NCBI GenBank assembly: GCA_043767805.1
Contig: JAYUGC010000113.1
Span: forward strand, 1 to 61,972
Length of the DNA stretch: 61,972 nucleotides
From: Pseudomonadota bacterium
Lineage (GTDB): Bacteria; Bdellovibrionota; FAC87; UBA2466
Direction: 5' to 3'
Shown: one piece after another, positions 1,510-21,979 of the stretch
How the letters are laid out: each line of letters starts with the position of its first letter
How positions within the stretch are numbered: the stretch's first letter is position 1
Notes under the pieces: model-generated
What the model saw: only the letters and a program-made list of their open reading frames with translations
Told to the model about the DNA's origin: nothing
Database searches by the model: none
Translations under genes and position numbers: made by a program

Positions 1510-1525
1510 TGCAATCGCTTTGCCA
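1510..1525 (-). promoter_or_regulatory. sigma54 -24/-12 promoter
   Basis: TGGCAAAGCGATTGCA on the minus strand (GG-N10-GC), about 55 nt upstream of the 1454 start. Confidence 0.7.
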
Positions 1526-1691
1526 GATTTTTAGGCAGGGGCGCCGCGACTAGGCGGCAAACTTTTCCAAGAGAGCGGTGTCGTTTCGACTCCGCCCGGC
1601 AACACAACCTTCCTCGAGGATAGTTCGCACTGGATTTCGAACTTTCGTCCGTGCTACTGCCATGCCTTAAGGTTTTGTGGGAGGTCCTATC

Positions 1692-2351: not shown

Positions 2352-2430
2352 GCGCGATCTCTTAAGTTGCGAAGCGGGGCGCAACGCGTTATCAGGGCGA
2401 GTCTCTATTACTAACTTTAGGAGTTCACTC

Positions 2431-2718: not shown

Positions 2719-2734
2719 TTCGTTTCAAAAGCTT

Positions 2735-2756
2735 CCCCGGCCCGCGAGGGCCGGGG
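2735..2756 (+). terminator. GC-rich hairpin, probable terminator or stabilising stem
   Basis: CCCCGGCCC-GCGA-GGGCCGGGG just after the stop; weak U-tract. Confidence 0.5.
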
Positions 2757-2771
2757 TAGGCTTCGTTTCGC

Positions 2772-3524: not shown

Positions 3525-4387
3525 AAATACAGATCGCGATCTTTCTCATTATGCTGACACAAAATACAATAGCTTCCGTGACGCCCAGAGTGCCCGAGCG
3601 AAAGGATTTCTCGGTGATTCAGGCCCGTCTCGATAAGCTCGTGGGGTTCGAGCAAACGAAGCTCGGGCCCGTGACCTACGGCACCAAGCACTATCCGATC
3701 TATGCGCTCGTCTCCAAGGGGCCTCAGGGAAAGAGAAAGAACGTACTGCTCTCGGCGGGCGTGCATGGCGACGAGCCGGCGGGCGTGTTCTCGCTTTTGC
3801 AGTTTCTGGAGAGAGATGTCGCTCGCTACACGGATCGTTTTCGTTTTTTCGTATTGCCGTGTGTGAATCCGAGCGGCTTCGAAGCGGATTCTTTAGAGAA
3901 TCACGGCGGGAATAATATCAACCGCGCTTTCAAAAAAGAAACTCCCGCCCAGGAGGCGAAGCTCGTCATGGATCAGCTGGCGATGTGGAAGGAAACTTTC
4001 GCGTTCACGATCGACATGCACGAAATCCCCGCTTACTGGGCGGACGAAGGCTTTACGGAGAAAGATAATCCCAAGGCGGCCTACCTCTACGAGACTCAAC
4101 TCGAAAAAGGTAAACGCATCGGAAGAGACATGCTCAATGGGCTTCCCAAGGACGCCGAGATCAGTCATTGGCCGAAGATCTACGGCGACTCGGCCGTGCG
4201 GGGGCTGGTCAGCTATCCCGAGGGAAATGGAAACAAGATTTACGCCGAGCAAACCACGCTGGACGGTTTTCTCCATGGCCGGTTCTCCGCTCATACTTTT
4301 ACTAGCGAGACACCGACCGGCTGGCCGCTCGAAAAGCGGATCCGGGTGCAGCTCTCCTGGCTCGAAACGGCGCTCAAGCATTATTGA
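3521..4387 (+). CDS. M14-family metallocarboxypeptidase (succinylglutamate desuccinylase/MpaA-like), probably exported
   Basis: ATG at 3521 overlaps the upstream TGA (ATGA). Motifs AGVHGDE, NINR, DMHE and SETP; hydrophobic N-terminus. Confidence 0.85.
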   Translation: MKIQIAIFLIMLTQNTIASVTPRVPERKDFSVIQARLDKLVGFEQTKLGPVTYGTKHYPIYALVSKGPQGKRKNVLLSAGVHGDEPAGVFSLLQFLERDVARYTDRFRFFVLPCVNPSGFEADSLENHGGNNINRAFKKETPAQEAKLVMDQLAMWKETFAFTIDMHEIPAYWADEGFTEKDNPKAAYLYETQLEKGKRIGRDMLNGLPKDAEISHWPKIYGDSAVRGLVSYPEGNGNKIYAEQTTLDGFLHGRFSAHTFTSETPTGWPLEKRIRVQLSWLETALKHY

Positions 4388-5964
4388 GGGCGTTTCACCT
4401 GAGCGTAGTCCGCTCCGCAGAGTATTTCGCGAAGGGACGCGATGGAGCGGACTTGGGCGCTGGTAGCCGGATCTAAGCTCAAAAGGTGCGCCACTTTCCG
4501 CGTGACCGCCGCCTGCGCTTTTTCCGCCATTTTTTCGAGAATTTTTCGGCGGCGGACGGGGTCGGTTTCTTTCAGCTCTGCGGCGATGGCCTCGGCGGGC
4601 CGGTCCCAATCGAAATTTTTCTTGGCTTTGGGAGCTTCCGCCGGCGCCTTAGGCGTCATCTCCACTTGCCCCACCGCTCTTGGCTTCGCGAGCTCCTCGA
4701 CCGTGTGGGCGAGACTCGTTCCGTCGATGACGGATTGAAACACCAGGCCCGGTTGCTGCCTTCCTGGTTCTCCCAGCTTCTCCAAACGATCTAAAAACCG
4801 ATCGATTTTCACCGGGAGAGACGCGGTCTTTCGGTACTCTCGCAGAGCTTCACTCATCTCGGTCGCGAGCGAAGGGCTCATAAAGATGGGCCGCAAGCTC
4901 TCGGCAAGATCTCTGAAGTCGGCGTTTTTCATCGGCATGATGTGACCATCTATCCCCTGGAGCATCAGATGAAATAGGGAAGCGCCCTTCAATTTGGGAT
5001 TGGCGGCTTTGAGCTCTCGTTCCAATCCGTCGGCAAAATCTTTTTTCCATTCCAGCCGTTCGTAGAAGAAGGGTTTCTCGTACTCCACGGCGAGAGTAGC
5101 GGAGACGTCGCCGGTGACGAGGATGGGAATATCGGAGTGAGCCACCACAGTCTTGGAAACTTCAAAGGGCAGCGACTTGTAATACCGAATCTCCACGTTG
5201 TCGGGAACGTCGGCCGAAACGGGATGCTGAACGATTAAGAGAAATTTCTGATTGCGGTTCTTGGGATCGCGCGCCGCACTTACGGCGGCCTCCAGATAGG
5301 CGTCCGTGGCTTGTCGCTCATGAGAGTAGGCGAACCCAATCTTCACCCCTTCATAGTTGCCCTTGAGGTCACCAAAAACTTGTACCGGTAGCGAATCGAG
5401 CTTGTCGTGAAGGGCACTTCGGGTCATGGGGGGCGCTGGCTTTTTTTCGCTTACGTAGAGTCCAGCGTAGTACTTCCCCGCTCCGGCGTTGACGCCCAGA
5501 AACGTGGCGCCGCCTTTTTTGAAATTCGTTACCGATCCGGCCGCAAGTTGTTCTTCGAAGCCGCCGTACTCTTCGAACACCATGACCAAAGGGGCGCTCG
5601 CACTGAGCTTAACGCTTTTCGAATCGGTCGCGAAATGCAGGCCGATATCGGTCTTGGGAAGCTCGCTCTTACCTTCTAAGTGGTAAGTGATTCCATTTAC
5701 TGTTTTCACGCCGCCCAGGCCCACGAGCCCTGGCTCGAGAATGGCGACGGTACCGAGGGACTCCGCAGCGACCAAGACGTGCACTTCGGCGTGGGGCCGG
5801 CGCTCGAGAACTTTTTGAGCCATGAGGATGTTGGCGGCGACATCGCCGAAGCCTCCGCGAGAGGTGTCGCCCGTGTAGAGGCTGATTTTCTCCGCCCATA
5901 GGTCGCCGCCGGCCAACAAGGCCGCGAGTACCAGTACGCGAACGAACTGAGACTTAAATGGCAA
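4381..5964 (-). CDS. Secreted GT-B-fold protein, EarP(DUF2331)-like
   Basis: TTG start with a purine-rich RBS; signal peptide; GFGDVAANILMAQ and SDIPILVTGDVSATLAVEYEKPFFY resemble EarP-type motifs (compared from memory). Confidence 0.55.
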   Translation of the reverse strand: MPFKSQFVRVLVLAALLAGGDLWAEKISLYTGDTSRGGFGDVAANILMAQKVLERRPHAEVHVLVAAESLGTVAILEPGLVGLGGVKTVNGITYHLEGKSELPKTDIGLHFATDSKSVKLSASAPLVMVFEEYGGFEEQLAAGSVTNFKKGGATFLGVNAGAGKYYAGLYVSEKKPAPPMTRSALHDKLDSLPVQVFGDLKGNYEGVKIGFAYSHERQATDAYLEAAVSAARDPKNRNQKFLLIVQHPVSADVPDNVEIRYYKSLPFEVSKTVVAHSDIPILVTGDVSATLAVEYEKPFFYERLEWKKDFADGLERELKAANPKLKGASLFHLMLQGIDGHIMPMKNADFRDLAESLRPIFMSPSLATEMSEALREYRKTASLPVKIDRFLDRLEKLGEPGRQQPGLVFQSVIDGTSLAHTVEELAKPRAVGQVEMTPKAPAEAPKAKKNFDWDRPAEAIAAELKETDPVRRRKILEKMAEKAQAAVTRKVAHLLSLDPATSAQVRSIASLREILCGADYAQVKRPQ

Positions 5965-5988
5965 AGCTCTTCCCCCTCTCCTTGTCTT

Positions 5989-6004
5989 AGCAAGGGGTGA
6001 GCCA
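5989..6004 (-). promoter_or_regulatory. sigma54 -24/-12 promoter
   Basis: TGGCTCACCCCTTGCT on the minus strand, about 25 nt upstream of 5964. Confidence 0.65.
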
Positions 6005-6519
6005 CGCTATGGCGTCGGAACCACGCGCTTTTCCATTCCCCTTCTTGGCTAATCCCTGGACAGGGAGGAAAGGATCGCAGGCACTGCCGCTAATTCTCGT
6101 CGATTACTAGACGACCCACCAAAAGTTCGACGCGCACTTTCAGTCGTTACCCGATCGCTTTCGTGCGCACCGATCGCATACGGCGGAAGGCCGAAACCCG
6201 GCGACCGGCGAATCGTGCGGCGGTGCCGTTTTCGTCCAAGCTTTCGACCCGTGTTTCATCAATGACAGTTGGCTAACCCCTCAGAGAATGCGCCAGGCTT
6301 TTGGTCACGCTCTACTAGTGGACGGGTGGAGTCCCTGCGATATCCCTGTTATTTCAATGAGATAGGCCAGGAAATCCGCATTTGTCTACGCGCTATCCGG
6401 CTTAAGAGCCCGGAACTAAAGGCTTTAGCTCTTCCGGCCCTATTCGCTACGGTTTCTCAAGCTTCCTACCGACAAGGGAGTTGAGGGTCTCCCTACGGGG
6501 TTAGCGGATACCTATGAAA

Positions 6520-6532
6520 AATCAATAAGTTA
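6520..6532 (+). promoter_or_regulatory. IHF binding site
   Basis: AATCAATAAGTTA is an exact match to WATCAANNNNTTR, about 45 nt upstream of the sigma54 site at 6576. Confidence 0.6.
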
Positions 6533-6575
6533 CCAATATCGAGTTTTGAGGCTAGCGAGTCGGGGTTTTTACAGA

Positions 6576-6591
6576 TGGCACCTTGGTTGCA
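6576..6591 (+). promoter_or_regulatory. sigma54 -24/-12 promoter of the giant gene
   Basis: TGGCACCTTGGTTGCA, near-consensus. Confidence 0.75.
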
Positions 6592-6736
6592 CAAGTTAGA
6601 AAACGACTTCCCATCCACCGCCGAGCGTTCGCTGGCCCGGTCCTTCGGAGTTTTTTTGAAACGTACACACGCCAAATTCGTTACGTTCCTGTTCCCTGCC
6701 TTTGCGCGCAGAGTGAAGGCATCGGGGGATTATTCC

Positions 6737-7582
6737 ATGACACGTGTTTTGTGCGCGGTAGCGCTCGCGTTCTGTTTTACGGCGCTGAGCTATGCCGCGG
6801 ACCCGCCCGCGGCTGACGAGAAACACGATCAGGACGGCCGGGCCACTAATGAATTAAAAAAATCCATCGAGACGCGCGCGGCTTATCTCCGTGAAGCGCT
6901 AAACAGCGCGGACAGTAAAATTCGTCTCGCCGCGTTCGCCGAAATCCGTGGCTACATCGCTTCCGATTCCAGAGAGAAATTCTCGACGATAGAGGCCAAC
7001 AAGAAGTTGGTGGACCTTTATCTCGGCGCGGAACATTTTGAGTCTCACGGCACTTGGTACGCGGACGCTAAAGCGGACAAGAAAGATATCGAAGCGAAGT
7101 CGGCCGCTTTCTTAAAGGTCGTCAGCGACCATTTCGCCGCCAAGGAAAAAGCCGAACGCGAAAAGTTGGCTAAGGTCGAAGAGGACAAAGCGCGTAACGA
7201 TCGCGAACTTCCCTGCGGCGAAGCCATTGGCAAGCACCCGGAATTTGCCGCCCTGTTTGGCAGCCAAGGCCGCGACAGAGCTCCCGCTTATGTGGCGGCT
7301 TTGCTGTCGACTCCCGAAGGAGAGCAAAAGTTTTTTAGCGGCTTGAAAACCATGACCGCTGAGACCATGCGTAAGTGTGATCTCCCTGAGATGACCGCGA
7401 GCGCTACGCTCCGGACTCTTTTGAAAGAGCTTCCCAAATTCCTTCCCGCCAATGCTTCCGAAGCCGCGAAAAAAGAAGCCGCGGCGCTGGTAGGGTGGGG
7501 GACGTACGTACTTCCCATCAAGCAGCCCGCTCTTAGAAAAGCGCTAGCCAACCGGCTCGAGCTGATGGCGCGCCTCGTTTGA
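6737..7582 (+). CDS. Signal-peptide-bearing helical protein; probable N-terminal part of the giant gene
   Basis: GGGGGA RBS then ATG at 6737; MTRVLCAVALAFCFTALSYA signal peptide; ends at TGA 7580-7582, in frame with the next ORF. Confidence 0.75.
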   Translation: MTRVLCAVALAFCFTALSYAADPPAADEKHDQDGRATNELKKSIETRAAYLREALNSADSKIRLAAFAEIRGYIASDSREKFSTIEANKKLVDLYLGAEHFESHGTWYADAKADKKDIEAKSAAFLKVVSDHFAAKEKAEREKLAKVEEDKARNDRELPCGEAIGKHPEFAALFGSQGRDRAPAYVAALLSTPEGEQKFFSGLKTMTAETMRKCDLPEMTASATLRTLLKELPKFLPANASEAAKKEAAALVGWGTYVLPIKQPALRKALANRLELMARLV

Positions 7583-7606
7583 GCGACGGCGAGCCAAGGC
7601 GCGGTC

Positions 7607-10600
7607 TTGTCCGACGAGTTCAAAAAAGCGATGACCGATCTCCGAGACAGTCCAACCCGCGGCGCGGACCTGGACGGCCATCTCTTTCTTCAGCTTCTGC
7701 AAACGCCTGATTCCACCACCAATACCGGCCATTCGTTGTTGGGCCTGGAAGGGTTGGAAGATTCCGCAAAGCAAGACTTCTATACGGTCGTCGGAGCCAT
7801 CCGCGCCCAGGATCCTTTCGCGGGCGCTCTCGTCGAGCCCGGAGGCAAGACTCTGTCGTCGCCTGAAGAGCTATTTGCGAGAATGGCTTATAGGGAAGAC
7901 CCGGCGGTCCTTAAAACGCTCGAGTTCAAGGGTGGGCCGGGCTACGCTGACTCTCCCGAGTACCTGCGGGAGACCCTGAGCCGCGCGTTTGCGGACTTGG
8001 AAAAACCCGAGACGCACCATCTCGGGCTCGATCGAAGCCGAGCACTGCCGTCTCAGATGGGACTGCTCTCCGAAGAAGAGCGAAAAGTTCAGCGAGAAAT
8101 TTTATCCGCGGCCCAGCTGGCCGTCGAACGCATGGACGGACATCAGCTCTCCGCGGACGATGCCGTGCTGCTAGAGGAAGAGCGCGCTCTCAAATCAAAA
8201 CTTTCCAAGAACTGTCCTTCCAACGCGGACTACGAGCTGAAGCGTTTGATCGAGATAGCGAAAGCCAAAGACAAAAAATCCATACCCATCCGGACTCGCC
8301 TGGCGCTTCTAAAGCTACCCGCGGGCCACATGGAAATACTTCGCTTCCTGATTGATAAAGCCGCTACCCCGGCTGAAAAGGACCGCCTTTCCGCTTTGAT
8401 TTATGCTCCGTCGGCGAACGCGATTCGGACAGAGCTCGGCAAGTTACCTTCCGAGCTCTTGGTCCTGGATTACAATCAGCCGCGCTTTAAAAGGGAATAC
8501 GATCAGAGAAACGGCGTCTCGTCGGTTCCGCTACCCTCTATCTTTGGAAAAAAGAACGAAGCGGGGGCCGCCAATCCCAACTTCCGTCCGGAAGCTGCTC
8601 GCTACTACGCGCTCAACGCTTTTAAATATGAAGCGCACGGTTCCCCCGAGGGAAGTAGTGACCCGCAGGCGTTTTTCAGCTGCTTTAAGCCGCCCTACGT
8701 CGATGCTTTGGCGATTTACGTCGGAGACATCGATGGCTGGGGACTTACCACTCCGCAAATTCTGGCGGAAATGGAGAAGGTCCGCTCGGGTAAGCTTGCC
8801 GAAGCCAATCCGAAGGTACAGGGTTTCTTGCAGGAGCTTTACGCGAATCGCGGAGCGAATCGCCTCGACTCGGACATCATTCGCCTGGGCCAGTGGCGCC
8901 GGGCCAAAGATCACCGCGCGCCGACCTCCGAAGAGCGAATGGCGTTTCTCGGAGATACCTTGCTCCCGGCAAGTCACGAGCAGGCCCCAAGCTTGAGATC
9001 GGAACGCGAAGGCGTAGTTAAGTTCGTTGCCACTCCCACGACTCAAACTCCCTCGGCGCTTCGTTGCGAGGATGAGGACCAGGCTTTGAAGAGTGTGCTC
9101 GCCGAGCAGTTCCCCGCGGTTGCCGAGGCGTTGGTGAGCTCCGATCCGGCGAAACTCGTTCACGCTTGGATCGCCGTCAATCGCGGCAATCTGAGCTTCG
9201 ACCCGGCCAAGATCCCGCTACCGGAGAAAACCGATCCGCGGTGGAAAAAACTTTCCGAAACCGTGGTGCCGTCCAAAGACAAAGCCGCTTTCTGGGATCG
9301 CATCAAGCAGGATCCCATTGCGGGTCTGGGAAAAGAGGCCGCGCCGGCGATACGCCGACAGATTCTCAGCCGTCTGATGCCCCAGCTCGTCTTGAGTGCG
9401 CCGAAAGCCGCGGAAAATCCGCTTCCCGGCCTGACCCCCGAGACCAAGGCCGCCAGAGAGCAGGCCGTTTCTCGCCGCATCGAGGACATCCAGAATTTGG
9501 TGAACTACGCCCAGCGAAATCTCGTCGGTATCGATGCCTTGTTCGCGCTCCAAAGCGCGAGCCCCGAAACCGGAGCGGACGCGCCCGAAGAGTTCCGCAA
9601 GGGCTTCTTGGCCTTTAACCGAGCCATGGAGAGTAATATCAGAGCGGTCCCCGGTCAGTTCGTCGACGGAATCTCGGGAGAGCTCGACCGGCTATTGAGC
9701 GGGCTTATGGAGGAAGAGCGCCTCAAGGTGCCCATGGACGCCTTTCTCCTCCACGACCGGATTTCTCTCAGAGAATATCACCGAGTGGGAGCCGAGAAGG
9801 ATGGCACGCGGCAGCCCGTCACGCCAGACGGTTCCCCTGATCTCTCCAACTTGGCAAAGGAAGAAGCTTTTCTGAAAGGCGTTCAAGCGCGCCATCAGTA
9901 CTTCGCCCAGCAAGGCTTGAAGCAAAAGCGCTTGGAGGCGCTCGGCTCGCAAAACGAATTTCTGACTCAGTTTTCCCGGCACCTCGGGCGGCTGGGTCCC
10001 GAGGTTCTTCCCGCCGCTCAGCTCAAGGCGGTTCTCGACCAGCTAGGAAGAATAAACGCCGCACTTACCGTCGGTCAGAAGGCCGCCCTTCTCCAAACGC
10101 TTGGCAATTTCGCTCTGTATTGCCAGAGCAAGCCCGACAATTGCAGTCTGCCGCTCCGCGAATCCGTGGGGCTCATGAACGCCATGTCTTTGAGGGATTT
10201 CGAAACGCTCAATCCCCTGGTGTATCAGCAGCACCTCAAGACTCCGAACGAAAGCAAAGACCCGTTTCTCGGCGACAACCGCCGTTTGTTTTCCAAGTGC
10301 TTGTTGAGGGACGAGCCGCCTCGCGAGGTGGCGAAGACTGAGGAGCCGAAGCCGGAAGTGGCGCCCCTCGTTCCTTTCAAGTTAGATAACTCCCGGCCGG
10401 ATGGCCCGAGTGCGCAGGGCCCCACGGCGGCGAACAAAGATCCCATCTGGGGACTACCCGAAACGTTTATTACCGAGGACGGAAAGCCCAAGTCCGCGGA
10501 AATGCGGGACGGGAGTAGCCCGTTCTTCGCGGAAAAAGCCGAGATGACGGCCGAAGCGCGTCAGAAGGTTTGGCTAAAAAACGAAGCGCGCGTGGCGGAA

Positions 10601-13600
10601 GCTCTCGATGATCTGGCAAATCCTGCCCTGACGGCTGAGGATCTGCAAAAACGTTTTGGGGCTTATTATCAGTCTAGGTTTGGGCAGCCTATGCCCACCG
10701 GTCCCTTAAGCCCGGTCACGGCGCAGAAGCTACGTTTTGCTTTGGTCAGCGATCTGTTCGAGCAGGCGGCCGCGGCCTCGGGAACCGCGCAGCGTAGCCG
10801 GCTACTCGCGGCGTTGAGCTCCTTGCCTGGTTCCGACGGAACCGTGGGAGGCTTGCGAAAGGCCTTGGACGGACTCTTCGACACCTCCACAAAAAATGAG
10901 TTTCAGCTCGCCGCTAAATTCCAGGCGGTTAACGACTGGTTGATCCAAGAAGCGAGTCACGGCGTCGGCAATAGCGACTCGAGAATGAGCCGCCTGCTTG
11001 GTTTGGTCTCGAGCACGCTCGACGATTACTGGGATCCAACGCAGAACAAGGCGCATGCGGACTCGGCGAGCACCCTTCGGATGGAGGGAGAGTACGAGCG
11101 GCATTATCCCGAGCTGGCCGAGCTGAGAACGCGGCTCCAGACCGCCGCCGTCAACGAAGGCAAATTCCTCTACGGTTCCGCCCGGCACTGGGCTTATTCG
11201 TCCCCTGAAACGATCCAGGCGGTGAGCGATCTCGGCAACACTTTATTGAGATACGAGCCGAAGGCGCTCGTCTCCGCGTTAACTGACGCCGGCGGCGATG
11301 CGAAACGCGCCAGCAAAGTGGACGAGCTCCATAAGCTCTGGGGGCGTTTCGCCCTGGAGCCCAACGCGGATCCCATGGCCGCGGATTTCAAGCCGGGCAA
11401 TCTGAACACGAATCGCGTTCGCGCGCTGGCGATGGAAACGCTTCTGCGTAAGTACAAGTTCAACGTGGGCGAGCTCGAGCAGATGCTAGGCACCTACTTA
11501 AAGGGAGCCCGGCTCGTTTCTCCCTACGAAATGGCTTTGGGCCTCGATCCGAACCTCGGCATCTACAATACCAAGAGTCACGCGGACGTTTTGAAACAGC
11601 CCGTGAAGGATGAAGATAAGGAAGGCATGATCGCCGAGCTTCTCATGGACGCTCGTGGCATCGGCGCCTACTTGCGCCGGAACAATCCAGTTCCCATGCC
11701 CGGACAAACTCCCAATCCCAAGCGGGACGAGCTGACTAAGAAATTTGCCGAAAGCTGGCCTACCACCGCGGAAATGAAAGCCACCATCGGGAGCCTGAAG
11801 TATTGGGCGGGTCCCGAGCAGGGCGGAGAGCGCACGCGCCAAGAGATTCAAGCCAAGTTTGGTTTCCTCACCGACCATCAGTCCGATCAGTTGAACCGCG
11901 CCTTGTCCGTATTGAGAAAGCTGCCCAAGCGCGATCTCCCCAGTGACGCGGAGATCATGCGAGTTATCGCCACGGAAGTGTTTCGGACCTATTCCAACGG
12001 CGAAGTGGGCGCGGAAAAGACGATTCCCGCGGTACTGAAACCGGACGCGGACGCGCTTCTGGAGACCGTGCGGAGCCTACACGAGTTGGTTAAATCGGAT
12101 CGCCCCGTCTTGGAAGCCGACTTGGCTGGCGCGACTAAGGGTCTTAAAGAATTGCTCGGCCAGGCCTCACTCGTCCAAGATCCCGAGAGTGGCCTGAAGA
12201 ACTGGATTTTAGGCAGCATGAACCGGAACATGGGCATCTCCGGACTGCTCACCGACCTCTTCGAGTACCGGCACCCCTGGGTGAAGCTCGATTCCATCGA
12301 GAACGTTTTGACGACCTTGGATCCGCGGCTCCGCGATACCGATCCCTTGGTTCGGGAACAGCTGAGAAATTTAGCGCGTATCTTGAAGGCGTCGCGCTGG
12401 CTCGAGGACAAGGAAAATCCGACCGATGCCGAGATTGAAAAAGCGGTTAGTGAAGCTTCCTTCGGCGTGACGCCGGATCAGAAGACTCCCGAGGAAATGG
12501 CAGCCGAAATCAAGCGTCTCTCTAGCTGGGTCAAGCTCTCGCTCCATATCGCGAAAAAAGCGCCTACCGATCGAAAATTAGATCAGGACCTCGCTTCCTT
12601 CATTCCCGCCGAGAGAACTCCGGAAGCGATCCGCTCCGACGCGCATCTCATCAGCGAATTTTTCAAAATCTCCCGCACTTTCTCGCCCAGAGACTCTGAC
12701 CGCGCCCAGCTCGCGAAGCTGCGGGATCAGGGACTCGATCACCATCTCATCGATACCTGGGTCAAAGCGTTGCAAGTCGACATGGATCATCTCGCCGGAG
12801 TGGCGCCGCACAAGGCGCTGGATGCGATTCGTTCGTCGAGTGCCGCGCGGGACGAAATTCTCGGGGCTATTTCCCTCATCACCCGTCATCTCAAAGACGA
12901 TCCGGTTCCCTTCAGCATGACGCCAAAGAAGGACGCGCCCTTTTCCATTCTCGCGGACCGCTTCGGTAGAACTCACAGAATCGAAGGGCTCTATCCGTGG
13001 ATCAAAGATCAGCTCAATGAGACGGACGAAGGAAAGTACACCGCGGCTCTCATGGGCGTTCTTCCCATCGGAGTCAAAGACGTAACCGACGACGCGCCGG
13101 AAAAAGCGCCTCTAGTGGGCGATAAGAACGAGCTTTTCGCCCAGGCTCTGTCGGTTCTGCGCTGCCGTTTACTGGAAGAGGTCCTTCGTCTTCAGTACGG
13201 TTATTCCGCGCGCGGCGGTAGCAGCCAATCTGCGCTCCTTCATTTCGATAACGACGTCCGCAAAAACGATCAAAAGCTCGGCGTGCTTTACGCAAAGGTC
13301 ATCCGGGACGTCGAAGTAAAGCTCCTGGAGCAATATTCGGACGCGGAAGTCGACATGAAGGCATTCCGCGACAAGTTGAAGAGCACCGATCCGGTCGCCT
13401 ATCTGAACACTTTGCGGGAACGCACTTTGCCCAGCGAAGCCGAAATGCGCGACGGCCGCGTGGTCGCGGTGCCCGGATGTGTGTATCAAGACACGTATCG
13501 CTCTACCGCGTCGGGTGGCCCGGATAAAAAAGGGCCCGGCTGGATCTTGGCGGGTCCGAACCGTGCGTTCTCAGAGTGGGCTCGCGAAGAGTTGCGGCGA

Positions 13601-16600
13601 GGCGGGCGCGACGGTGTCTCCGAGATTTTGCGCGACGACAATCGCTTCCTCTCGGCGTTATCCGGCGAGCTCTCACAGAGCTTTGGCCCGTACGCGGGCT
13701 TTTATCGCCCTCAAAATACCTGGACGGCCGAAAAGACTTATCCCGCCTTGCATGAGTGGGGATACTCGGTGGCTTTACAGCGCGGCAAATACCCGACCGA
13801 CGGGTTCGCACCCCGGGATCCTCCACCCGCCGTGCTGGCCGCCTTGGCCGAGCTTCCGAAGGAAAAGAAAGAAGCTCTCACTAGCCAATTGGAAGCCGCG
13901 AAGAAGGAAGCCCTCCGTAAGGATAAGGCCGCGGAGAATCTAGTCGGCACAGGGCCGACGTTCGGCGTGCGGACGGTCCATCCGGATCACGACGTCGAAG
14001 AAGCGGGGAAAGCCCTGCGCGCGGCGCACGAGACCCGCAAGGCTATTTACGACTCGATTTTGGAAACGCATGCGCAATCTTTCCGCACGCCCGCTTCACC
14101 CATTCCCGCCGGGGCGGAAGCTCAGTTGATGAAGCTTTCGCTTCCCATGCGAGAGTTGCTCTCCGTCGTTCTTTTCCATGAGCGCGATCGCGCGGCCGTT
14201 ATCGAAGCTAAGCTTCGCGAGCTGGATCGCGACCCGAAAGCCAACGAAAAAGAGATCACCAAGCTTCGCTCCGAAGTGAAAGCCATTCATCTTTTGGCCA
14301 ACCGGCTCATTCTGGTCCCCGACGTCTCCACCTTAGCGAGCGTCGCCTGGAAGGACCCCAAGCTCAGAATGTGGTTACTCGACAAGGCCACGCCGCGACT
14401 CAGTCCGCCCGAAGAAGGAAAGGCGTTCACCGATCTGACGGACAAGCTCCGGCGCTGGGACAAGTTGCTTCTGAAGCCGGGTGAAGAGGCATTGAGTCTT
14501 GAGGAACGCGAAGCTGTACGAGACCAGTTTGAAAGGGTCTTGCATTTCGCCGCGGCTCCGTCGAGTGGTCCTTTCGAGGAGACTCGTGGCTCGAACGACC
14601 GCGGCAAGAAAGCCGCTTCCCATTTCGTTTCCTTACTCCTGCGCATGACCGAAGAGGCCGGGAGTCTCGAGTTTGCTCGCAAAAACTCCGGCTTCGCCAA
14701 AGATTACGAAGCTGTCATGGGCGGAGACGCGCGCTTTACCCCGCAGGCTACCTTAGGCGAGCTGCAGTCCGAGCGGCGCTTGGCTCACGACGGTTGCGCG
14801 GGAGACAAGGCAACCTCACTGACTTGCGTGAAACTGAACGAGCGCCTCAAAAAAATGGATGGTCTGGGACGTGGATTGTCTACCCAGGCCCGCCTGAGGT
14901 ATTTGACCCCTGGCGAAGATCAGCTCCAAGAGGGCGACTTCCATGCGTTAGAGCGGCTCGAAAACGATTTGCTGCCTCAGACGCATACGCAAAACGATAA
15001 AGCGGAGGGAATCCGGCTCACCCAGGAAAACCTGATGGCGTTCCCGAGTAAAGGCGTCATCGATCAGGCGTCGCGCAACTACGACTTGGGACGTTTCCTC
15101 TATCGCACTCAGAATGAGTCCGTGCCTCGCGTTTCGGAAGAAGTCATCGAGCGCTTGGTGAAAGTGGCGCAAAACGGCAAGGCACAAGTTTTCGGATGGA
15201 AGATCACCGACAAGGGTCCGACTCTCGTGGTGGAAGAGAAAGCTTGCGAGACGATTAAGCCGCTCCCCGAGAACCCCGGCGAAGTCGATACCGAAGTCAT
15301 CGCAGACGTCGTCATGTCCAAGGAAGACAGCGAAGTCATTCTCGGAGGAGCCACGAGGCTCGCGAACTACCAGGCGTTCCAGACGGCTTACGAGGGCCTG
15401 AAGCTATCTTCGCCGACCGGGCAGGAGCCCGATTACGCCGAGGTGATGGAAAAAGCCAAGCCCATCTTCGACGAGAAGCGCGACAAGCTCTTGACTGATC
15501 TGGTCACCATGGCGGCGCGCCGGTATTTGCAGATAGCGATCCGAGAAGCCGGCAATCCGGCCGACTTGCGTCTCTCCGCGCCCAACTCGAAAGCAGGTTG
15601 CGCCCTGCGCGCGTTGCTCGGTAAAGCGCACATCTACGACATTCAGAAAGTGCAACAAGACGTCTTCCGCTCGGAGAAGATTGCGGAAACTCGCGCAGCC
15701 GGGAAGGGCGACGGGACGGTTTCGCCGAAGGAAATGGGAGAAAAGCTCGAGAGGTTCATGAGCTCACCTGAGTTTCTCGTCGAGATCGAGCGCAAGTTCG
15801 AACATGAGGTGGCTTTCCACGACGGTACCCAGGAACAGACGCGGCCGGTGTTCAACGCAGCCGTGACCGAGACGACTCTCAAGGACGGTCTGGGCGCTTG
15901 TTACGACAGCTGGAAAAAAGGCGGCAAGACGGTTCCGGCAATTACCCGGCAAGACGATCCTCGCGTGCTCAAGCTAGCCACCGCCATCGAGGCGGAAACT
16001 CTAGCCATTCGTTCGCTGCACCAGATGAATCAGGTGGAGGCCGATTTGCGCGCCCGCGCGGCGGAGACCACCATCAGCGACACCGCGGCGGACCTCTCTT
16101 TCTTTTCCGACCCCAAAACGGGTTTGGTGACGTCGATTGAGAAACAGCTGGCCAGGTTTAAGAACCCGAAGCTCAATCCGGAGCTCAATACCCACGAGAT
16201 GAAAAAGACCGTGGAGCGGCTGGAAGAGCAGCTCGCGTCGCACAAATCAAATGCATCAAGACTGACGTTTGACCTCTACCGGAACCGTTTGCGGGTGGAA
16301 GCGGCGCTGAACGCTCCTTTGGACGGACCCAAGACCCAAGAAGAGATTCTCTCGGATATCGATTCCATCTCTCGCATCAAGAGCCTTTACGAAGAGGAAA
16401 GCAATCGGCTTCATCTGGCGCTTCCCGAAGACCGGCGTCCTCCGTTCGCGGCTTTTCCGCCGAATGATTTCTTCGGCAATGTCTATGACGACCCCCAATT
16501 GCGCGGCTACGTCGAGCGCTTCGTCCGCGCCAAGCTCGCGGCGGTAGCGGAGAAGCGCAAGCTGCACCAAGTTCCCGAAGGGTACGATCCCCGCCTCGAC

Positions 16601-19600
16601 GAAGCGGCTTTGATCGACATCAAGCTCCAGTCCCTCATCCGCAAAGCCGGCGCGCTCAAGCGCTCCGAGCGGATGCAGAAGATGGAAGAAGAGCTCGGTA
16701 AAATGGCGACCGCTCAAGACCAGAGCGTCATCTTGAAAGTTCAGGATGATTTCGACCAGATGGCCGTGCACTGCATGGAGCTGCTCGCGGACAAGGGCCG
16801 CTGGCCGGTCTTCACCGATGACGACGGCAAACATTTCGACTTGGCGGATATCGCCGCCGTCCGCAACCACATCATGGCCTTCGAGGCGCAACGGGCGGGC
16901 TTTAAGGCTCTCGTCAGCTCCCTTTTGCCGCCTCCCGGAGTCAAGCTGGCTAAAGACATGGACGGGACCCGGGCTTTCGAGCACTTCGTGGCTAGCCACC
17001 CGACGTATAAGGAAGCTTTAATAGCCATGCAGGGCAACGACTCGCTTTTCCCGCTGAACGAGGCGGCTTTGCACTCCTTGGAGAAAGACACCTTCCAAAG
17101 AGCGTTCGACGAGCGCAATCAGGAAGAGATCAAATTGAAGGAAAGCCTCGAGGGTCTAGCCGAGCTCGGGTTTCAGTGGAACGGCACCAGCCTCCAGTGG
17201 GGCCAGGGCAAGGACGGTCTCAAGCTTCATCTCATCGGGCCCAAAGGCAAGATCAAGAGCCTCGCCGAATTGAAGGCGCGTCTCGAGGGTTTGCGCGCCC
17301 ATGGCGCTTACAAGCTCAATGGAAATAATCCCTGGTCGCTTCTGATGGAAGACATCTGGCTGAAATACTCGAACACTGGCTTCAAGCCGCTTATCGAGTT
17401 CGGTAACTCCGCCATTTGCATGATGAGCTTCTTGCACGAGACCGACGAAGCCCGAGCGGATGGGATTTACTCTCAGAGCACCGGTAGGGAGCAAAATCTA
17501 CCCGATCACGAGCTTTGCTTCGATCCGACACTGACGAAAGTTTCCGACAAGCATCGTGTCAAATCGGCGCGTCTCGGCGGTGGCATCGAAGACCAAAAAG
17601 GAATCTCGTCGACCTTCCTGAGCGACATGGGTCACGCGGAGAAGTACCTTGCTTTCATGAGCCTCGAAGATGCCCGCGCTAGAGCCACCAAGATTGCGGC
17701 GGAAGTGAAAGCCGGCATGAGCGGCGAGGCCAACAAGTACGATCTTCTGCGCAAAGAGCTCATGGGGCAGTCCAGCAACATGTTCGCGGCCTTTCAGGAT
17801 CTCGATCAGATTTCTTGGGAGCGCAACCCTCAGGGCAATATCTGGATGCGAAACCTGGGCTGGACCAGCGTAAAAGGCGCGGCCAATGCCTTGGATAAAT
17901 CGTGGGGCGCACTCGGAAAGCTCAGAGACACGCTGGCGAGCGACATCTCTCGCTTGGAAGCCCTCGGCGGCATCACCATCGACTGGCAGGCGAGCGATCA
18001 CACCGTTCAGCAGCCCGCCTCCAGCATCGCCCAGATGTTGCGGCAGCAGCAAAAATACGTCACTGACCCGGATTTCTTCAAGAACGTGCCTCGCGAGGTC
18101 ATGGAAAACATCGACGCTCTCCAGGAGTTCTATACCGAGATGCTCATCACCGAAATCGCCACCGCGGGTCTCGGTGGCGTGTTCCAGGCGGCCAGATTCG
18201 GCCTTAGGGGCGCGATGGTCGCCGATGCGGCGAAGTATGCGGTGCTGGCGGAGCGTCTGGAAAAAGGAATGGCGCTCACCGAGCACGTCGTGAAAGGCGT
18301 GCGCAGCGCTTACCGTTTCGGAATAGGCGGTAAGGTCGTCGGCGATTTGATTTCCAAATTGAACGAAAAAGAGCGCGGCTACATGATGACTCAGTCGGGC
18401 GTGCAACTGCGCGACGGCGCGAGAAAGAGCCGCTGGGTTTTCGGTCTGCTTCCGCTGACTGGGCCCGTGGTGCAGTCGATGGCGCAGTTGAGCGGCGTTC
18501 CGGCGCACTTGATTCCCTGGGTGGCGGGCCCGCTCTCCATGGGCGGAACGCACTACGGTGTCGAAATCGCCAACGGCCACGATCCCCTGCATTCTTTGAT
18601 TGGTACCGTGCCGATGGCGATGTTCGGCCTTCCGGTATCGCGGCTGGCCGGGGGTCTCTACGCCAACGGCATGAAGCAGCCCATTTTGGGATCGGTGCTT
18701 AGGCCCACCTGGGTGCAGAAGCCGCTCATGGGAATCGCCAGTTACGGTTACTTCGCCAGTGTTACCGCGACCGGCGGTGCGCTTAGCCATTACCTCTCTC
18801 CGGGGATCAACCGGGATGAGGAGACAGGTGAGCTCGTCTACACGAGTCCTTTCACGGGCAAAGAAGTGAAGGACGCGACGATCTTAAAAATCATGGGCGA
18901 CGCGGTTTTCGGCAATATCGGCATGGATATGTTCTTCGCTCGCAATCACATCGCGGAAGTCCAGTCGAACGCGGCGGCAAGTCTCTTCCGCTCCGGCACG
19001 TCTTATCGCCAAGTGATCGATACCTTTAGCGGAGGCAAGCCCCAAAAGGCGCAGCAAGCCCATCAGATGCTGATTCAGGGGCTTGCGCACACCTCCGTCT
19101 CCGAGATCCGCAATATGCGCCAGAAAGCCATCGAGCGGCGCCGTGAGGTCGAAAAGAATCCGCTCAACGTAGAGGCGGCGCGGGAACTGGAGGGTCTGGA
19201 ACAGTCCCTTTCGCTTTTTGCAAAGACCGCGGGCCACGGCGAGAAGGAATTTGGCACCGTGGATGAAGCGGCGATTAACTCGTTCATGACTTCTCTCGAG
19301 GCTCACACTAAGGGCGGCCTGGGCAACCGGCCGCTCATGGAAGTCGTCGATAAAATGTCTTTCGAATTGGCGGTGGCCAAAGTTTCCGATCTGAAAAAGA
19401 AAGACGCCAGCTTGGATGAATGGCTCGCGCTGGTCAAAGATCCCATTTATCAAGGATCGGGCGCCTCCAGCATGGCGCGGATCATGATCTTGCCTCCCGA
19501 AATCATCCAGAAAGCGCTGGCCTCTCCCAAGCACAAGGAAGCTTTCTTCCCGGTACTCGAGCAGCTCGCGGGCATCGTCTCCATTCGGCCGGACAGAATG

Positions 19601-21979
19601 GGCTCCTTCGGCGAATTCATGACTCACTACCGGCCTAAGGGGAAAGAGACGCTTCTCGGGATTGCCCAAAAATTCAACCGCGCGAAGCCGGGGCAGTATC
19701 GCAAGTTTCTCGCCGACGGCAGCATGACCTATCTTGATTTGATCGAAGGCTTCGAAAACGAGAGAACGGCTATTCTGGACGGTTTCACGGTCGATGACGT
19801 GCGGGTGATCGTCGCGCAGGCCAATGAAACTTCTCAAACGGGACGCGCTAAAGCCGCCAAGGTGATGCTCGAGCTTCTGGCGAGTCGCCATCAGATCGAC
19901 GTTCCGCTCTTCGTTCAGGCGATAGCGGGCGCGGCGAAAGATCGCCCCGCGGTCTCCGCGGACGCTAAAGTGGGCACCGACAAGGGATGGTTGAAGGACA
20001 CTAAGCTCATTAATCTGGCGGGCGAAATGTTACCGCGTGCGGCGCGCGCTCTGCGCGATCAGGTGAAAGCGGATCCGTCGAAAATCGACCAAATGATGGG
20101 TTACGCCTACTTCCAGGTCCCGCAGGGTTTCGTGCACGTGCCGCTTAGCGCGCTCAGAGTCGGAAGTGGCAGCGGCCCGGACGCGAAGCCAGCCGACCCG
20201 AAACATTTGCAGTTTCTCGATCTCGTTTCCGCTCACCATGCGAAAATCGATTCGACTTTCTCGAACGCTTTGTACGAGCGAGGCGTTTCGGTCGGCGAGT
20301 TTCAGCTCTATTTCCGTGAGTTCGTTCGCAACAAGGCAGGCCTGTTCAGCAATCCGCCGGACGCGGCCCGCCAAGCGAAGCTCGACTTCATGGCGGCGAT
20401 CCGCAGCCGACCCAAGCCGGGTGAGACGAAAATGGACGGCTTGCAGGCTTTGACGAAGGAGTGGAACGAGGTCGAAGCGCTCATCACGGCGGATCCCAAA
20501 GATCCGGCCGCCGTGGCGAGGCTTGCGAAGATTGAGCCGACGATCCTCGCCCTGGCCGAGCGCTCTGGTTTCGTCGATGGCCAGGGGGGCGCGAACCCGG
20601 TGGGCCTGTTCCATTTCCTCGAGCAAGCCCGCGCCGAGAAGGCGCCCAAAGAAGGACCGGACAGCCGTACGGTGGCTCAGCTCATGCCGGAGGCGCAGCG
20701 TTTGGCCCGCCTGGACATGGTCGCCAAAGCCAGAGACGGCTCGCTCAGCGTCGAGGCTTTGCTGACTCACGACCTGTTCTTGGATCCGCGCTATCAATTC
20801 CGCACGACGGGAAAACTCCATTTCCGCCCCGAGGCCCTGGCCATGATTCCTCAAGACGTCGTGTTGCGCGCGTACCAAAAAGCGGTGAACCCGGAACAGA
20901 AGCGGGCTTACGCCGAGGCCATCGTGCGCATAGCGCAGGAGTCCGGCTATGTTCCAAGGCACCTCGAGGAAGGGTTCCTAAATTTCCTCGTCGGATACCG
21001 GGGCAGCCGCGGCGCGACCGTCGTGGACCTCGCCCAGCTCTATCAGAGTGGCCACGTGAGTGAGCTCGGGCACATGCTGGCGTCGGGAGCGCTGGATCTA
21101 GGCGGCCTCGAAGGCCTGCCGGATTCGACGGCAAATAAGGTTCAAAACACCGTTCGCGCGTTGGTGAGAGTGGAGCTGAAGCCTTCCCGGGCCGAAGAAG
21201 TCTTGGACTCGCTGACCGTGGAGTCCGTCGGGAAGCTCGTGGATCAGGCCAAGAACCCGAATCATCCGAACTCGGTCAACGCGAGAAACATCGTTCGGAC
21301 CATCTCCCATCGCATGGGAACGGAGCCCGAATATTTCGAGACTTTCTTTGCGGACTATCGGAAAGGAAAAGAGAGTAGCGCCATCTACGATGCGTTGGGA
21401 CAGTTCATGGGGATCAAGCTCGATCCTCGTCAGCTCCGGACGATGAAAGACGTGGCGCCTTATTTCTGGAAGGCGAGTAACGAGGCCGTCCGCAACACTC
21501 TGGAAGCGCGGCCGGAAGTGCTCGAGAAGCTAGCGACCACGAGCTTCTTCGCTCAAGAGAACCCCTTCCGCTTCCTGCCCACTTCGGCGCTTCGTCTGAC
21601 GGAAACCAAGCGGATGGAGCGCTCTCCGAACAGCGCCGAAGTGACGGAAGTCACCGTGCCCTCAAATGCGATTCACCACTTACTCATAGATAAGGCGGGC
21701 AGCGACGCGGTTCGAAACGACGCCGTTTTCCTCAAGGCCTTGCAAACCCGCCAGGTCGAAGGAGTGAACGAGTCGGACGCGTTCGTGGCTCATCTGAAGC
21801 AAGTCTTGATCGGGGAGCCGGGCAAGTACAGGAACGTCAGTGACGCCGTGGAAGCGGCGAAGAAGAGTTACTTGCTGACGCCGCGGTCGGTGCCGGTGCC
21901 AAAGACCAGCAGCCTACTTCGAAGCGGTCTCAATATTGTTGAGCGCCGCTTTGCGCACGGACTCATGGTAGCCGTCTAA
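7607..21979 (+). CDS. Giant (4790 aa) alpha-helical hypothetical protein
   Basis: 14.4-kb uninterrupted ORF. The TTG start lacks an RBS and the product has no signal peptide. Gly/Ala-rich hydrophobic block at about 18140-18940; duplicated C-terminal module. Confidence 0.9.
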   Translation: MSDEFKKAMTDLRDSPTRGADLDGHLFLQLLQTPDSTTNTGHSLLGLEGLEDSAKQDFYTVVGAIRAQDPFAGALVEPGGKTLSSPEELFARMAYREDPAVLKTLEFKGGPGYADSPEYLRETLSRAFADLEKPETHHLGLDRSRALPSQMGLLSEEERKVQREILSAAQLAVERMDGHQLSADDAVLLEEERALKSKLSKNCPSNADYELKRLIEIAKAKDKKSIPIRTRLALLKLPAGHMEILRFLIDKAATPAEKDRLSALIYAPSANAIRTELGKLPSELLVLDYNQPRFKREYDQRNGVSSVPLPSIFGKKNEAGAANPNFRPEAARYYALNAFKYEAHGSPEGSSDPQAFFSCFKPPYVDALAIYVGDIDGWGLTTPQILAEMEKVRSGKLAEANPKVQGFLQELYANRGANRLDSDIIRLGQWRRAKDHRAPTSEERMAFLGDTLLPASHEQAPSLRSEREGVVKFVATPTTQTPSALRCEDEDQALKSVLAEQFPAVAEALVSSDPAKLVHAWIAVNRGNLSFDPAKIPLPEKTDPRWKKLSETVVPSKDKAAFWDRIKQDPIAGLGKEAAPAIRRQILSRLMPQLVLSAPKAAENPLPGLTPETKAAREQAVSRRIEDIQNLVNYAQRNLVGIDALFALQSASPETGADAPEEFRKGFLAFNRAMESNIRAVPGQFVDGISGELDRLLSGLMEEERLKVPMDAFLLHDRISLREYHRVGAEKDGTRQPVTPDGSPDLSNLAKEEAFLKGVQARHQYFAQQGLKQKRLEALGSQNEFLTQFSRHLGRLGPEVLPAAQLKAVLDQLGRINAALTVGQKAALLQTLGNFALYCQSKPDNCSLPLRESVGLMNAMSLRDFETLNPLVYQQHLKTPNESKDPFLGDNRRLFSKCLLRDEPPREVAKTEEPKPEVAPLVPFKLDNSRPDGPSAQGPTAANKDPIWGLPETFITEDGKPKSAEMRDGSSPFFAEKAEMTAEARQKVWLKNEARVAEALDDLANPALTAEDLQKRFGAYYQSRFGQPMPTGPLSPVTAQKLRFALVSDLFEQAAAASGTAQRSRLLAALSSLPGSDGTVGGLRKALDGLFDTSTKNEFQLAAKFQAVNDWLIQEASHGVGNSDSRMSRLLGLVSSTLDDYWDPTQNKAHADSASTLRMEGEYERHYPELAELRTRLQTAAVNEGKFLYGSARHWAYSSPETIQAVSDLGNTLLRYEPKALVSALTDAGGDAKRASKVDELHKLWGRFALEPNADPMAADFKPGNLNTNRVRALAMETLLRKYKFNVGELEQMLGTYLKGARLVSPYEMALGLDPNLGIYNTKSHADVLKQPVKDEDKEGMIAELLMDARGIGAYLRRNNPVPMPGQTPNPKRDELTKKFAESWPTTAEMKATIGSLKYWAGPEQGGERTRQEIQAKFGFLTDHQSDQLNRALSVLRKLPKRDLPSDAEIMRVIATEVFRTYSNGEVGAEKTIPAVLKPDADALLETVRSLHELVKSDRPVLEADLAGATKGLKELLGQASLVQDPESGLKNWILGSMNRNMGISGLLTDLFEYRHPWVKLDSIENVLTTLDPRLRDTDPLVREQLRNLARILKASRWLEDKENPTDAEIEKAVSEASFGVTPDQKTPEEMAAEIKRLSSWVKLSLHIAKKAPTDRKLDQDLASFIPAERTPEAIRSDAHLISEFFKISRTFSPRDSDRAQLAKLRDQGLDHHLIDTWVKALQVDMDHLAGVAPHKALDAIRSSSAARDEILGAISLITRHLKDDPVPFSMTPKKDAPFSILADRFGRTHRIEGLYPWIKDQLNETDEGKYTAALMGVLPIGVKDVTDDAPEKAPLVGDKNELFAQALSVLRCRLLEEVLRLQYGYSARGGSSQSALLHFDNDVRKNDQKLGVLYAKVIRDVEVKLLEQYSDAEVDMKAFRDKLKSTDPVAYLNTLRERTLPSEAEMRDGRVVAVPGCVYQDTYRSTASGGPDKKGPGWILAGPNRAFSEWAREELRRGGRDGVSEILRDDNRFLSALSGELSQSFGPYAGFYRPQNTWTAEKTYPALHEWGYSVALQRGKYPTDGFAPRDPPPAVLAALAELPKEKKEALTSQLEAAKKEALRKDKAAENLVGTGPTFGVRTVHPDHDVEEAGKALRAAHETRKAIYDSILETHAQSFRTPASPIPAGAEAQLMKLSLPMRELLSVVLFHERDRAAVIEAKLRELDRDPKANEKEITKLRSEVKAIHLLANRLILVPDVSTLASVAWKDPKLRMWLLDKATPRLSPPEEGKAFTDLTDKLRRWDKLLLKPGEEALSLEEREAVRDQFERVLHFAAAPSSGPFEETRGSNDRGKKAASHFVSLLLRMTEEAGSLEFARKNSGFAKDYEAVMGGDARFTPQATLGELQSERRLAHDGCAGDKATSLTCVKLNERLKKMDGLGRGLSTQARLRYLTPGEDQLQEGDFHALERLENDLLPQTHTQNDKAEGIRLTQENLMAFPSKGVIDQASRNYDLGRFLYRTQNESVPRVSEEVIERLVKVAQNGKAQVFGWKITDKGPTLVVEEKACETIKPLPENPGEVDTEVIADVVMSKEDSEVILGGATRLANYQAFQTAYEGLKLSSPTGQEPDYAEVMEKAKPIFDEKRDKLLTDLVTMAARRYLQIAIREAGNPADLRLSAPNSKAGCALRALLGKAHIYDIQKVQQDVFRSEKIAETRAAGKGDGTVSPKEMGEKLERFMSSPEFLVEIERKFEHEVAFHDGTQEQTRPVFNAAVTETTLKDGLGACYDSWKKGGKTVPAITRQDDPRVLKLATAIEAETLAIRSLHQMNQVEADLRARAAETTISDTAADLSFFSDPKTGLVTSIEKQLARFKNPKLNPELNTHEMKKTVERLEEQLASHKSNASRLTFDLYRNRLRVEAALNAPLDGPKTQEEILSDIDSISRIKSLYEEESNRLHLALPEDRRPPFAAFPPNDFFGNVYDDPQLRGYVERFVRAKLAAVAEKRKLHQVPEGYDPRLDEAALIDIKLQSLIRKAGALKRSERMQKMEEELGKMATAQDQSVILKVQDDFDQMAVHCMELLADKGRWPVFTDDDGKHFDLADIAAVRNHIMAFEAQRAGFKALVSSLLPPPGVKLAKDMDGTRAFEHFVASHPTYKEALIAMQGNDSLFPLNEAALHSLEKDTFQRAFDERNQEEIKLKESLEGLAELGFQWNGTSLQWGQGKDGLKLHLIGPKGKIKSLAELKARLEGLRAHGAYKLNGNNPWSLLMEDIWLKYSNTGFKPLIEFGNSAICMMSFLHETDEARADGIYSQSTGREQNLPDHELCFDPTLTKVSDKHRVKSARLGGGIEDQKGISSTFLSDMGHAEKYLAFMSLEDARARATKIAAEVKAGMSGEANKYDLLRKELMGQSSNMFAAFQDLDQISWERNPQGNIWMRNLGWTSVKGAANALDKSWGALGKLRDTLASDISRLEALGGITIDWQASDHTVQQPASSIAQMLRQQQKYVTDPDFFKNVPREVMENIDALQEFYTEMLITEIATAGLGGVFQAARFGLRGAMVADAAKYAVLAERLEKGMALTEHVVKGVRSAYRFGIGGKVVGDLISKLNEKERGYMMTQSGVQLRDGARKSRWVFGLLPLTGPVVQSMAQLSGVPAHLIPWVAGPLSMGGTHYGVEIANGHDPLHSLIGTVPMAMFGLPVSRLAGGLYANGMKQPILGSVLRPTWVQKPLMGIASYGYFASVTATGGALSHYLSPGINRDEETGELVYTSPFTGKEVKDATILKIMGDAVFGNIGMDMFFARNHIAEVQSNAAASLFRSGTSYRQVIDTFSGGKPQKAQQAHQMLIQGLAHTSVSEIRNMRQKAIERRREVEKNPLNVEAARELEGLEQSLSLFAKTAGHGEKEFGTVDEAAINSFMTSLEAHTKGGLGNRPLMEVVDKMSFELAVAKVSDLKKKDASLDEWLALVKDPIYQGSGASSMARIMILPPEIIQKALASPKHKEAFFPVLEQLAGIVSIRPDRMGSFGEFMTHYRPKGKETLLGIAQKFNRAKPGQYRKFLADGSMTYLDLIEGFENERTAILDGFTVDDVRVIVAQANETSQTGRAKAAKVMLELLASRHQIDVPLFVQAIAGAAKDRPAVSADAKVGTDKGWLKDTKLINLAGEMLPRAARALRDQVKADPSKIDQMMGYAYFQVPQGFVHVPLSALRVGSGSGPDAKPADPKHLQFLDLVSAHHAKIDSTFSNALYERGVSVGEFQLYFREFVRNKAGLFSNPPDAARQAKLDFMAAIRSRPKPGETKMDGLQALTKEWNEVEALITADPKDPAAVARLAKIEPTILALAERSGFVDGQGGANPVGLFHFLEQARAEKAPKEGPDSRTVAQLMPEAQRLARLDMVAKARDGSLSVEALLTHDLFLDPRYQFRTTGKLHFRPEALAMIPQDVVLRAYQKAVNPEQKRAYAEAIVRIAQESGYVPRHLEEGFLNFLVGYRGSRGATVVDLAQLYQSGHVSELGHMLASGALDLGGLEGLPDSTANKVQNTVRALVRVELKPSRAEEVLDSLTVESVGKLVDQAKNPNHPNSVNARNIVRTISHRMGTEPEYFETFFADYRKGKESSAIYDALGQFMGIKLDPRQLRTMKDVAPYFWKASNEAVRNTLEARPEVLEKLATTSFFAQENPFRFLPTSALRLTETKRMERSPNSAEVTEVTVPSNAIHHLLIDKAGSDAVRNDAVFLKALQTRQVEGVNESDAFVAHLKQVLIGEPGKYRNVSDAVEAAKKSYLLTPRSVPVPKTSSLLRSGLNIVERRFAHGLMVAV

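Follow-up and report, generated by a model that had tools for sequence, protein, structure and literature searches.

Nonsense polymorphisms in bacterial populations, typically changes of CGA to TGA, appear as 'split' genes in metagenome-assembled genomes. A TGA within a frame can also be decoded, and bacterial decoding of UGA as selenocysteine (Sec) involves a Sec insertion sequence (SECIS) hairpin directly after the UGA, a tRNA-Sec, and SelA and SelB. Here, we examined a stretch of 61,972 nucleotides (nt) that makes up contig JAYUGC010000113.1, hereafter the window, from a sediment metagenome assembly of a genome assigned to the Pseudobdellovibrionaceae (Bdellovibrionota). A TGA in the window separates a short reading frame that opens with a signal peptide from a very long one, and we consider it highly probable that the two are a single gene of ~5,080 codons, split by a single-letter nonsense change of CGA to TGA, with no decoding signal at the stop. 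Omnitrophota-type giant genes, as described in a preprint (West-Roberts et al., bioRxiv 10.1101/2023.11.21.568195), have tens of thousands of codons, scattered enzymatic domains (peptidase and others) and adjacent type II secretion genes, and a related preprint (10.64898/2026.06.04.730025) deals with a search for giant proteins of >30,000 amino acids (aa).

The ATG at 6737–6739, the TGA at 7580–7582 and a TTG at 7607 share one frame, which is open from 7583 to a TAA at 21977–21979. Translation through the TGA gives 5,080 residues with a single stop, at codon 282, within 15.2 kb of otherwise continuous frame. This recomputation agrees with an earlier note, made from the sequence alone, which had described two same-frame open reading frames (ORFs) with the same joined length and had proposed that they were one gene. 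The public gene calls split the gene into P0008 (335 aa, from 6575) and P0005 (4,782 aa, from an ATG at 7631), and a program-made ORF list also opens the first frame at the upstream ATG at 6575 (335 aa). The ATG at 6737 is the better start, as the protein then opens directly with a classical leader, and in the relatives, too, the start shortly precedes a hydrophobic leader. The earlier note had credited the first ORF alone with a ribosome-binding site and a signal peptide. Both are found there, with GGGGGA 7 nt before the ATG and the leader following it, but the TTG at 7607 is not wholly without a ribosome-binding site, as AAGG lies 7 nt 5′ of it and is a weak match; nothing comparable precedes the ATG at 7631. 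The promoter placed before 6737 in the same note was not confirmed, as a scan with the consensus placed the closest sigma-70-like site at 6262–6289, with none near 6737.

The first 754 residues of the read-through translation, with an X at the stop, were used to search 41 related genomes, and matches were found in five of them, including the window's own genome. The orthologue in a genome of the same genus (G001) matches residues 5–742, and those in three genomes from one genus of a sister family (G026, G027 and G028) match residues 143–540, all without a stop. In a four-way alignment, conserved blocks flank codon 282 on both sides. A TGA flagged by the profile search in the G028 match sits upstream of that gene's start codon. 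The G001 gene is broken by an assembly gap and its two pieces are collinear with residues 5–1524 (33% identity) and 1501–5072 (41% identity) of the window protein and free of stops. A complete relative of 3,028 aa (P0006), in which the first ~800 residues are common to both, has a signal peptide at its start and is uninterrupted. None of the four relatives whose match crosses the junction has two separately started genes. The flanking genes are also common to the window and G001, with an upstream AstE-like gene at 56% identity and a downstream UshA-like gene at 49% identity. These comparisons support reading the two frames as one ~5,080-codon gene, as the earlier note had suggested, and the public calls of 335 aa and 4,782 aa should be read accordingly.

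No 19-residue stretch of the protein other than the leader, MTRVLCAVALAFCFTALSYA, is strongly hydrophobic; the top Kyte–Doolittle value, 1.84, is at aa 4–22. The G001 orthologue and the relatives P0006 and P0007 likewise open with a hydrophobic leader. With an N-terminal signal peptide of its own and comparable leaders in its relatives, the protein is predicted to be exported by the Sec route; the SYA/AD cleavage site was judged by eye, without a signal-peptide predictor. All 18 cysteines outside the signal peptide, two before the stop and 16 after it, are kept in G001 at an overall identity of 33–41%. C160 and C214 are invariant in all four aligned sequences, and C649 is also invariant in the four-way alignment. 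The protein very probably carries disulfide bonds. As this conservation is the pattern of structural disulfides in an exported protein, the segment after the stop would need the signal peptide encoded upstream of it, and the argument from cysteines made in the earlier note is thus stronger than when it was first put.

The cysteines also bear on the alternative that the two frames are genuine separate genes, one for a small secreted protein and the other for an independently translated cytoplasmic protein of 4,790 aa (or 4,782 aa). The gene callers did report P0008 and P0005 as two proteins, and the weak AAGG before the TTG at 7607 could serve the second. However, 16 conserved cysteines would then lie in a part without a signal peptide, no relative is split at this point, homology to single proteins spans both parts, and nothing resembling a promoter or a terminator was found between the two frames. 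We regard two separate genes as very improbable.

Four public runs (X1 to X4), all from one sediment study, contain the stretch, and their contigs were compared with the window over positions 6600–9600. A T at 7580 was found only in X1, the likely source run of the assembly, in a contig of 385 nt with a mean depth of 5.6. The other three runs, X2 (depth 7.38), X3 (depth 6.85) and X4 (depth 2.6), have a C, which makes codon 282 CGA (Arg) in place of TGA. Contigs of 3,819 nt each in X2 and X3 bridge 6600–9106 and differ from the window at only two positions, 7580 and 8284, so organisms that are ~99.9% identical over this stretch carry the open frame. The second difference (A to G at 8284 in both) changes ATA to ATG and is non-synonymous (I516M). 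X4 has a further non-synonymous difference, T to C at 7257 (F174S), at a depth of 2. No synonymous differences were seen among the sister-run contigs within the 3 kb compared. A second copy of the junction, as a possible carrier of the C allele, was not found in the same assembly. The earlier note had proposed that orthologues and reads at 7580–7582 be compared, with a sense codon pointing to a single gene and removing the recoding idea. A sense codon is what the orthologues and the sister-run contigs have.

The match to premature-stop polymorphisms known from bacteria is close. An Arg codon has become TGA by a C-to-T change, sister populations of ~99.9% identity keep the sense codon, the downstream frame is intact and the target is large. 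Of the 45,711 possible single-base changes in the gene, 1,652 create a stop, and it contains 24 CGA codons. Nothing mechanistic differs from such polymorphisms, and what is unusual is only that so large and obscure a gene was hit. The gene is interrupted either by a standard nonsense polymorphism or by a base taken into the consensus at low coverage.

Several observations weigh against a true nonsense allele or leave the case thinner than the contigs suggest. The comparison was made with contigs instead of raw reads, at low depth (2.6–7.4) and with all runs from one study. The X2 and X3 records are equal in length and may not be independent, and the C in X4 is only five letters from the end of its contig. 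In X1, the contigs break at the site, with one ending at 7579 and the next beginning at 7566. The break fits a mixed or thinly covered position, and the T may be a minority variant or one that few reads support. Among public RNA runs, none containing the stretch was found. The tRNA set detected by Aragorn is incomplete (no tRNA for Trp, Tyr, Asn or Ile) though the genome is rated 100% complete. Several of these points are also what would be expected if the T were an artefact of consensus or assembly, in which case the true sequence would be CGA everywhere, the T would be a sequencing error or a rare variant adopted at ~6–7x, and the gene would be intact in essentially all cells. The C in three of the four runs and the perfectly intact 4,798 downstream codons agree with this explanation. 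Against it, the T is present both in the deposited assembly and in a separately built X1 contig, and hence would be in more than one read, although both may derive from the same reads and so are not independent. We consider an artefact unlikely, but it carries more weight than any of the other alternatives to a nonsense allele.

Decoding of the TGA was examined in several ways. TGA ends 938 of the 2,637 open frames of at least 300 codons in the genome, with TAA ending 964 and TAG 735, and is therefore an ordinary stop here. Stop usage of this kind does not fit the alternative codes in which TGA is read as an amino acid (NCBI tables 4 and 25). Aragorn found 41 tRNAs and a tmRNA, none of them a tRNA-Sec or with a UCA anticodon; SelA, SelB and SelD were not searched for. 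The Rfam tRNA-Sec model (RF01852) gave seven sub-threshold matches, the best with 42.3 bits against a cut-off of 47. Folding of the RNA from 7560 to 7680 (121 nt) gave −44.9 kcal/mol compared with a mean of −44.2 for shuffled sequences (z −0.21), which is no unusual structure. The stop lies in a short, unconserved linker that bears insertions and deletions (indels), and each of the four relatives has a sense codon there. AlphaFold was used to model residues 1–754, and in this model residues 281–289, between a helix that ends at 279 and one that starts at 293, have a pLDDT below 50. TGA is not conserved at the homologous codon, which is CGA in X2, X3 and X4 and an unconserved sense codon in the relatives.

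Programmed recoding, by Sec insertion or by read-through, would yield a 281-aa product in abundance and the giant protein only rarely. It would account for the continuous frame with one stop in 15.2 kb and for the lack of a strong ribosome-binding site before the downstream ORF, and an in-frame TGA inside a long conserved frame is what bacterial Sec genes have. In contrast to those genes, no tRNA-Sec scored above the cut-off and no stable hairpin follows the stop; the relatives have unrelated sense codons, and at this codon the near-identical contigs of the sister runs encode Arg (CGA), not Cys. On the CGA allele together with the stop usage, tRNA-Sec, RNA-fold and linker results, we reject selenocysteine, read-through and an alternative code, and the chance that the TGA is recoded appears negligible. 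Among the three explanations listed in the earlier note, a recent nonsense mutation is thus the best fit, an assembly error survives only in the form of a thin or minor variant taken as the consensus, and programmed read-through falls away.

Under a nonsense change, codon 282 would have gone from CGA to TGA by one C-to-T transition in the captured strain or consensus, and the TGA allele would be a very young one segregating in the population, its youth being judged from the lack of any second defect in the 14.4 kb downstream. The intact allele would encode a precursor of ~5,080 aa that is Sec-exported, stabilised by disulfides and almost entirely alpha-helical. From the T allele, translation beginning at the ATG at 6737 would stop after 281 residues and leave a short exported fragment, and the remaining 4,798 codons, with neither a signal peptide nor a good ribosome-binding site, would be translated poorly, if at all. 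Re-initiation at the TTG at 7607 or the ATG at 7631 may occur, with a product that would not be exported. The T allele would in effect be a knock-out.

Ala, Leu, Glu and Lys are abundant in the protein, and Cys makes up 0.4%. Nearly all of it is predicted to be helical, and self-BLAST detected no internal repeats. A core at aa 3751–4250 is the best conserved part, with 56.9% and 55.5% identity to G001 against 33–48% elsewhere. Glycine reaches 10.6% in aa 3501–4000. Of the fourteen stretches with the highest hydropathy in the protein, four fall in the core, all of them below the level of a typical transmembrane helix. Pfam, NCBIfam and PHROGs gave no family for the window protein or its relatives. 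The sole NCBIfam match was a coiled-coil-like one to the 281-aa part, with 19.2 bits against a cut-off of 350, and the large part had none; no match was found among PDB sequences. An AlphaFold model of the core (aa 3700–4300, from a two-sequence alignment) had a mean pLDDT of 45.6, which was too poor for use in a structure search. The N-terminal model (754 aa, four sequences) had a mean pLDDT of 60.4, and Foldseek found no match to it in the PDB at E ≤0.001, returning only generic alpha-solenoids with TM-scores of ≤0.15. For the core, the ESM Atlas returned phage hypothetical proteins as the nearest (scores of 0.92–0.93) and clusters of polyvalent proteins, with a recognition below the level usual for known families, and for aa 300–1000 it gave no usable match.

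The relatives found were few. A profile of the N-terminal part matched in eight of the 401 Bdellovibrionota genomes searched, every one of them from the order to which the window belongs, and three of the eight matches cover only a ~90-residue motif in other long frames. A profile of the core matched in two of the 401, namely the window's genome and G001, and the C-terminal 1,390 residues were found in two of 38 genomes of the order. In the searches made, the C-terminal two thirds were found in one genus only. The N-terminal profile had four matches among 1.84 billion representative proteins, two of which are the window's own. In a word-indexed collection of 5.8 billion proteins, where only the 1,222–8,000 candidates sharing most words were scored, the N-terminal 700 aa searched against long proteins and aa 120–520 searched against shorter proteins returned the window's own proteins or nothing, and the core searched against shorter proteins returned nothing. 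In metagenome contigs, an exact 32-mer beside the stop was not found and none of 203 pattern matches was confirmed as a relative with profile A1; in viral contigs, profile A2 confirmed none of 88. The window gene and its relatives represent an undescribed family of giant exported orphan proteins.

Omnitrophota-type giant genes, as the preprint describes them, resemble this gene in being single ORFs of great length in a lineage of predators, with a signal peptide near the N-terminus and long domain-poor stretches. Here, by comparison, the protein of 5,080 aa is several-fold shorter, matches no Pfam family and has no internal repeats. No secretion-system family was found in the 18 neighbouring ORFs scanned, type II secretion genes included. 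A search of the open-access literature found no paper on giant proteins of Bdellovibrionota. The large polyvalent proteins of phages and conjugative elements (Pfam LPD14 and LPD22 clusters) are also very long and largely helical and are the weak ESM Atlas neighbours. Unlike them, the window protein has no Pfam or PHROG match and no relative in viral contigs, and is encoded in a chromosomal setting with conserved neighbours. The resemblance is a lead only and does not establish a relationship.

As a guess that draws on the predatory habit of the lineage, on the export signal and on the conservation of the hydrophobic core rather than on homology, the intact protein may be an envelope or extracellular protein used in contact with prey, with aa 3751–4250 as its working part. 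A bolder proposal is that it represents an undescribed class of predator protein, 5,080 residues long, Sec-exported, all-helical and held by nine conserved disulfides, with a core that inserts in prey membranes. In that case the TGA allele would be a knock-out of natural origin, kept at appreciable frequency in the sediment, for example in 'cheater' or non-predatory cells spared the cost of a 15-kb gene. We think this improbable. What makes the locus of interest is an exported orphan gene, among the longest of its genome, that keeps all 18 mature cysteines and falls outside every family library tried. It is a reasonable target for studies of how Bdellovibrio-like predators deal with prey.

The features of the locus, together with nearby genes and frames in other genomes that carry a short related motif, are collected in Table 1.

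Table 1. Positions of the interrupted gene and its parts, of nearby genes in the window, and of short-motif carriers in other genomes
Feature	Position	Strand	Basis or remark
Shine–Dalgarno-like GGGGGA	6724..6729	+	7 nt 5′ of ATG; direct sequence reading
Start codon and putative Sec-type signal peptide, aa 1–20 MTRVLCAVALAFCFTALSYA, then ADPP	6737..6796	+	Hydropathy; leaders of relatives
N-terminal segment, first 281 codons, with conserved Cys160 and Cys214	6737..7579	+	Homologous to N-termini of uninterrupted relatives
Premature TGA, codon 282	7580..7582	+	Position 7580 is T in window and X1; C (CGA, Arg) in X2, X3 and X4
Remaining 4,798 codons, fully open, to TAA 21977–21979	7583..21979	+	Collinear with two G001 pieces
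Best-conserved core, aa 3751–4250, glycine-rich, with four moderately hydrophobic helices at ~aa 3798–4067	17987..19486	+	Identity to G001; hydropathy peaks
Convergent UshA-like metallophosphoesterase-type neighbour, 408 aa	21914..23140	−	3′ end overlaps 3′ end of giant gene by 66 nt
FHA-domain protein, also matching YscD cytoplasmic domain	25351–25971	+	
Caspase-like Peptidase_C14 protein	28293–29111	+	
DUF4423 protein	41263–42246	−	
Short-motif carrier, G025 (2,174 aa)	L027 1501–1818	+	Weak; E 7e-10 to 9e-4 over the three carriers
Short-motif carrier, G010 (2,487 aa)	L028 1501–1779	−	Weak; as above
Short-motif carrier, G002 (1,263 aa)	L029 1501–1719	+	Weak; as above

Immediately downstream, the convergent UshA-like gene matches NCBIfam NF041198, 'UshA-like (seleno)protein', with E 9.7e-36 and 123 bits, which is below the cut-off of 275. 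Its product has a hydrophobic leader and an 'ELEPCGC' motif, and a counterpart of 49% identity is kept in the same position in G001. It appears to be a Cys-containing version of the NF041198-type protein. Upstream, the AstE-like gene and the giant gene are separated by a minus-strand ORF of 527 aa (4381–5964), for which neither Pfam nor NCBIfam gave a match. In G001 these two genes are adjacent, so the ORF appears to have been inserted or to be specific to the lineage.

The genome holds seven further frames of 2,000–2,900 codons (on contigs C87, C110, C197, C50, C120, C18 and C71). None of these matched the N-terminal profile, which had one match in the window's genome (G000). A motif of roughly LP..sR..LL..P..yR..L ... 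LI..PS, at about aa 500–570 of the window protein, is also present in very long frames of three further Bdellovibrionales genomes. This short motif may point to a broader family of giant proteins within Bdellovibrionales.

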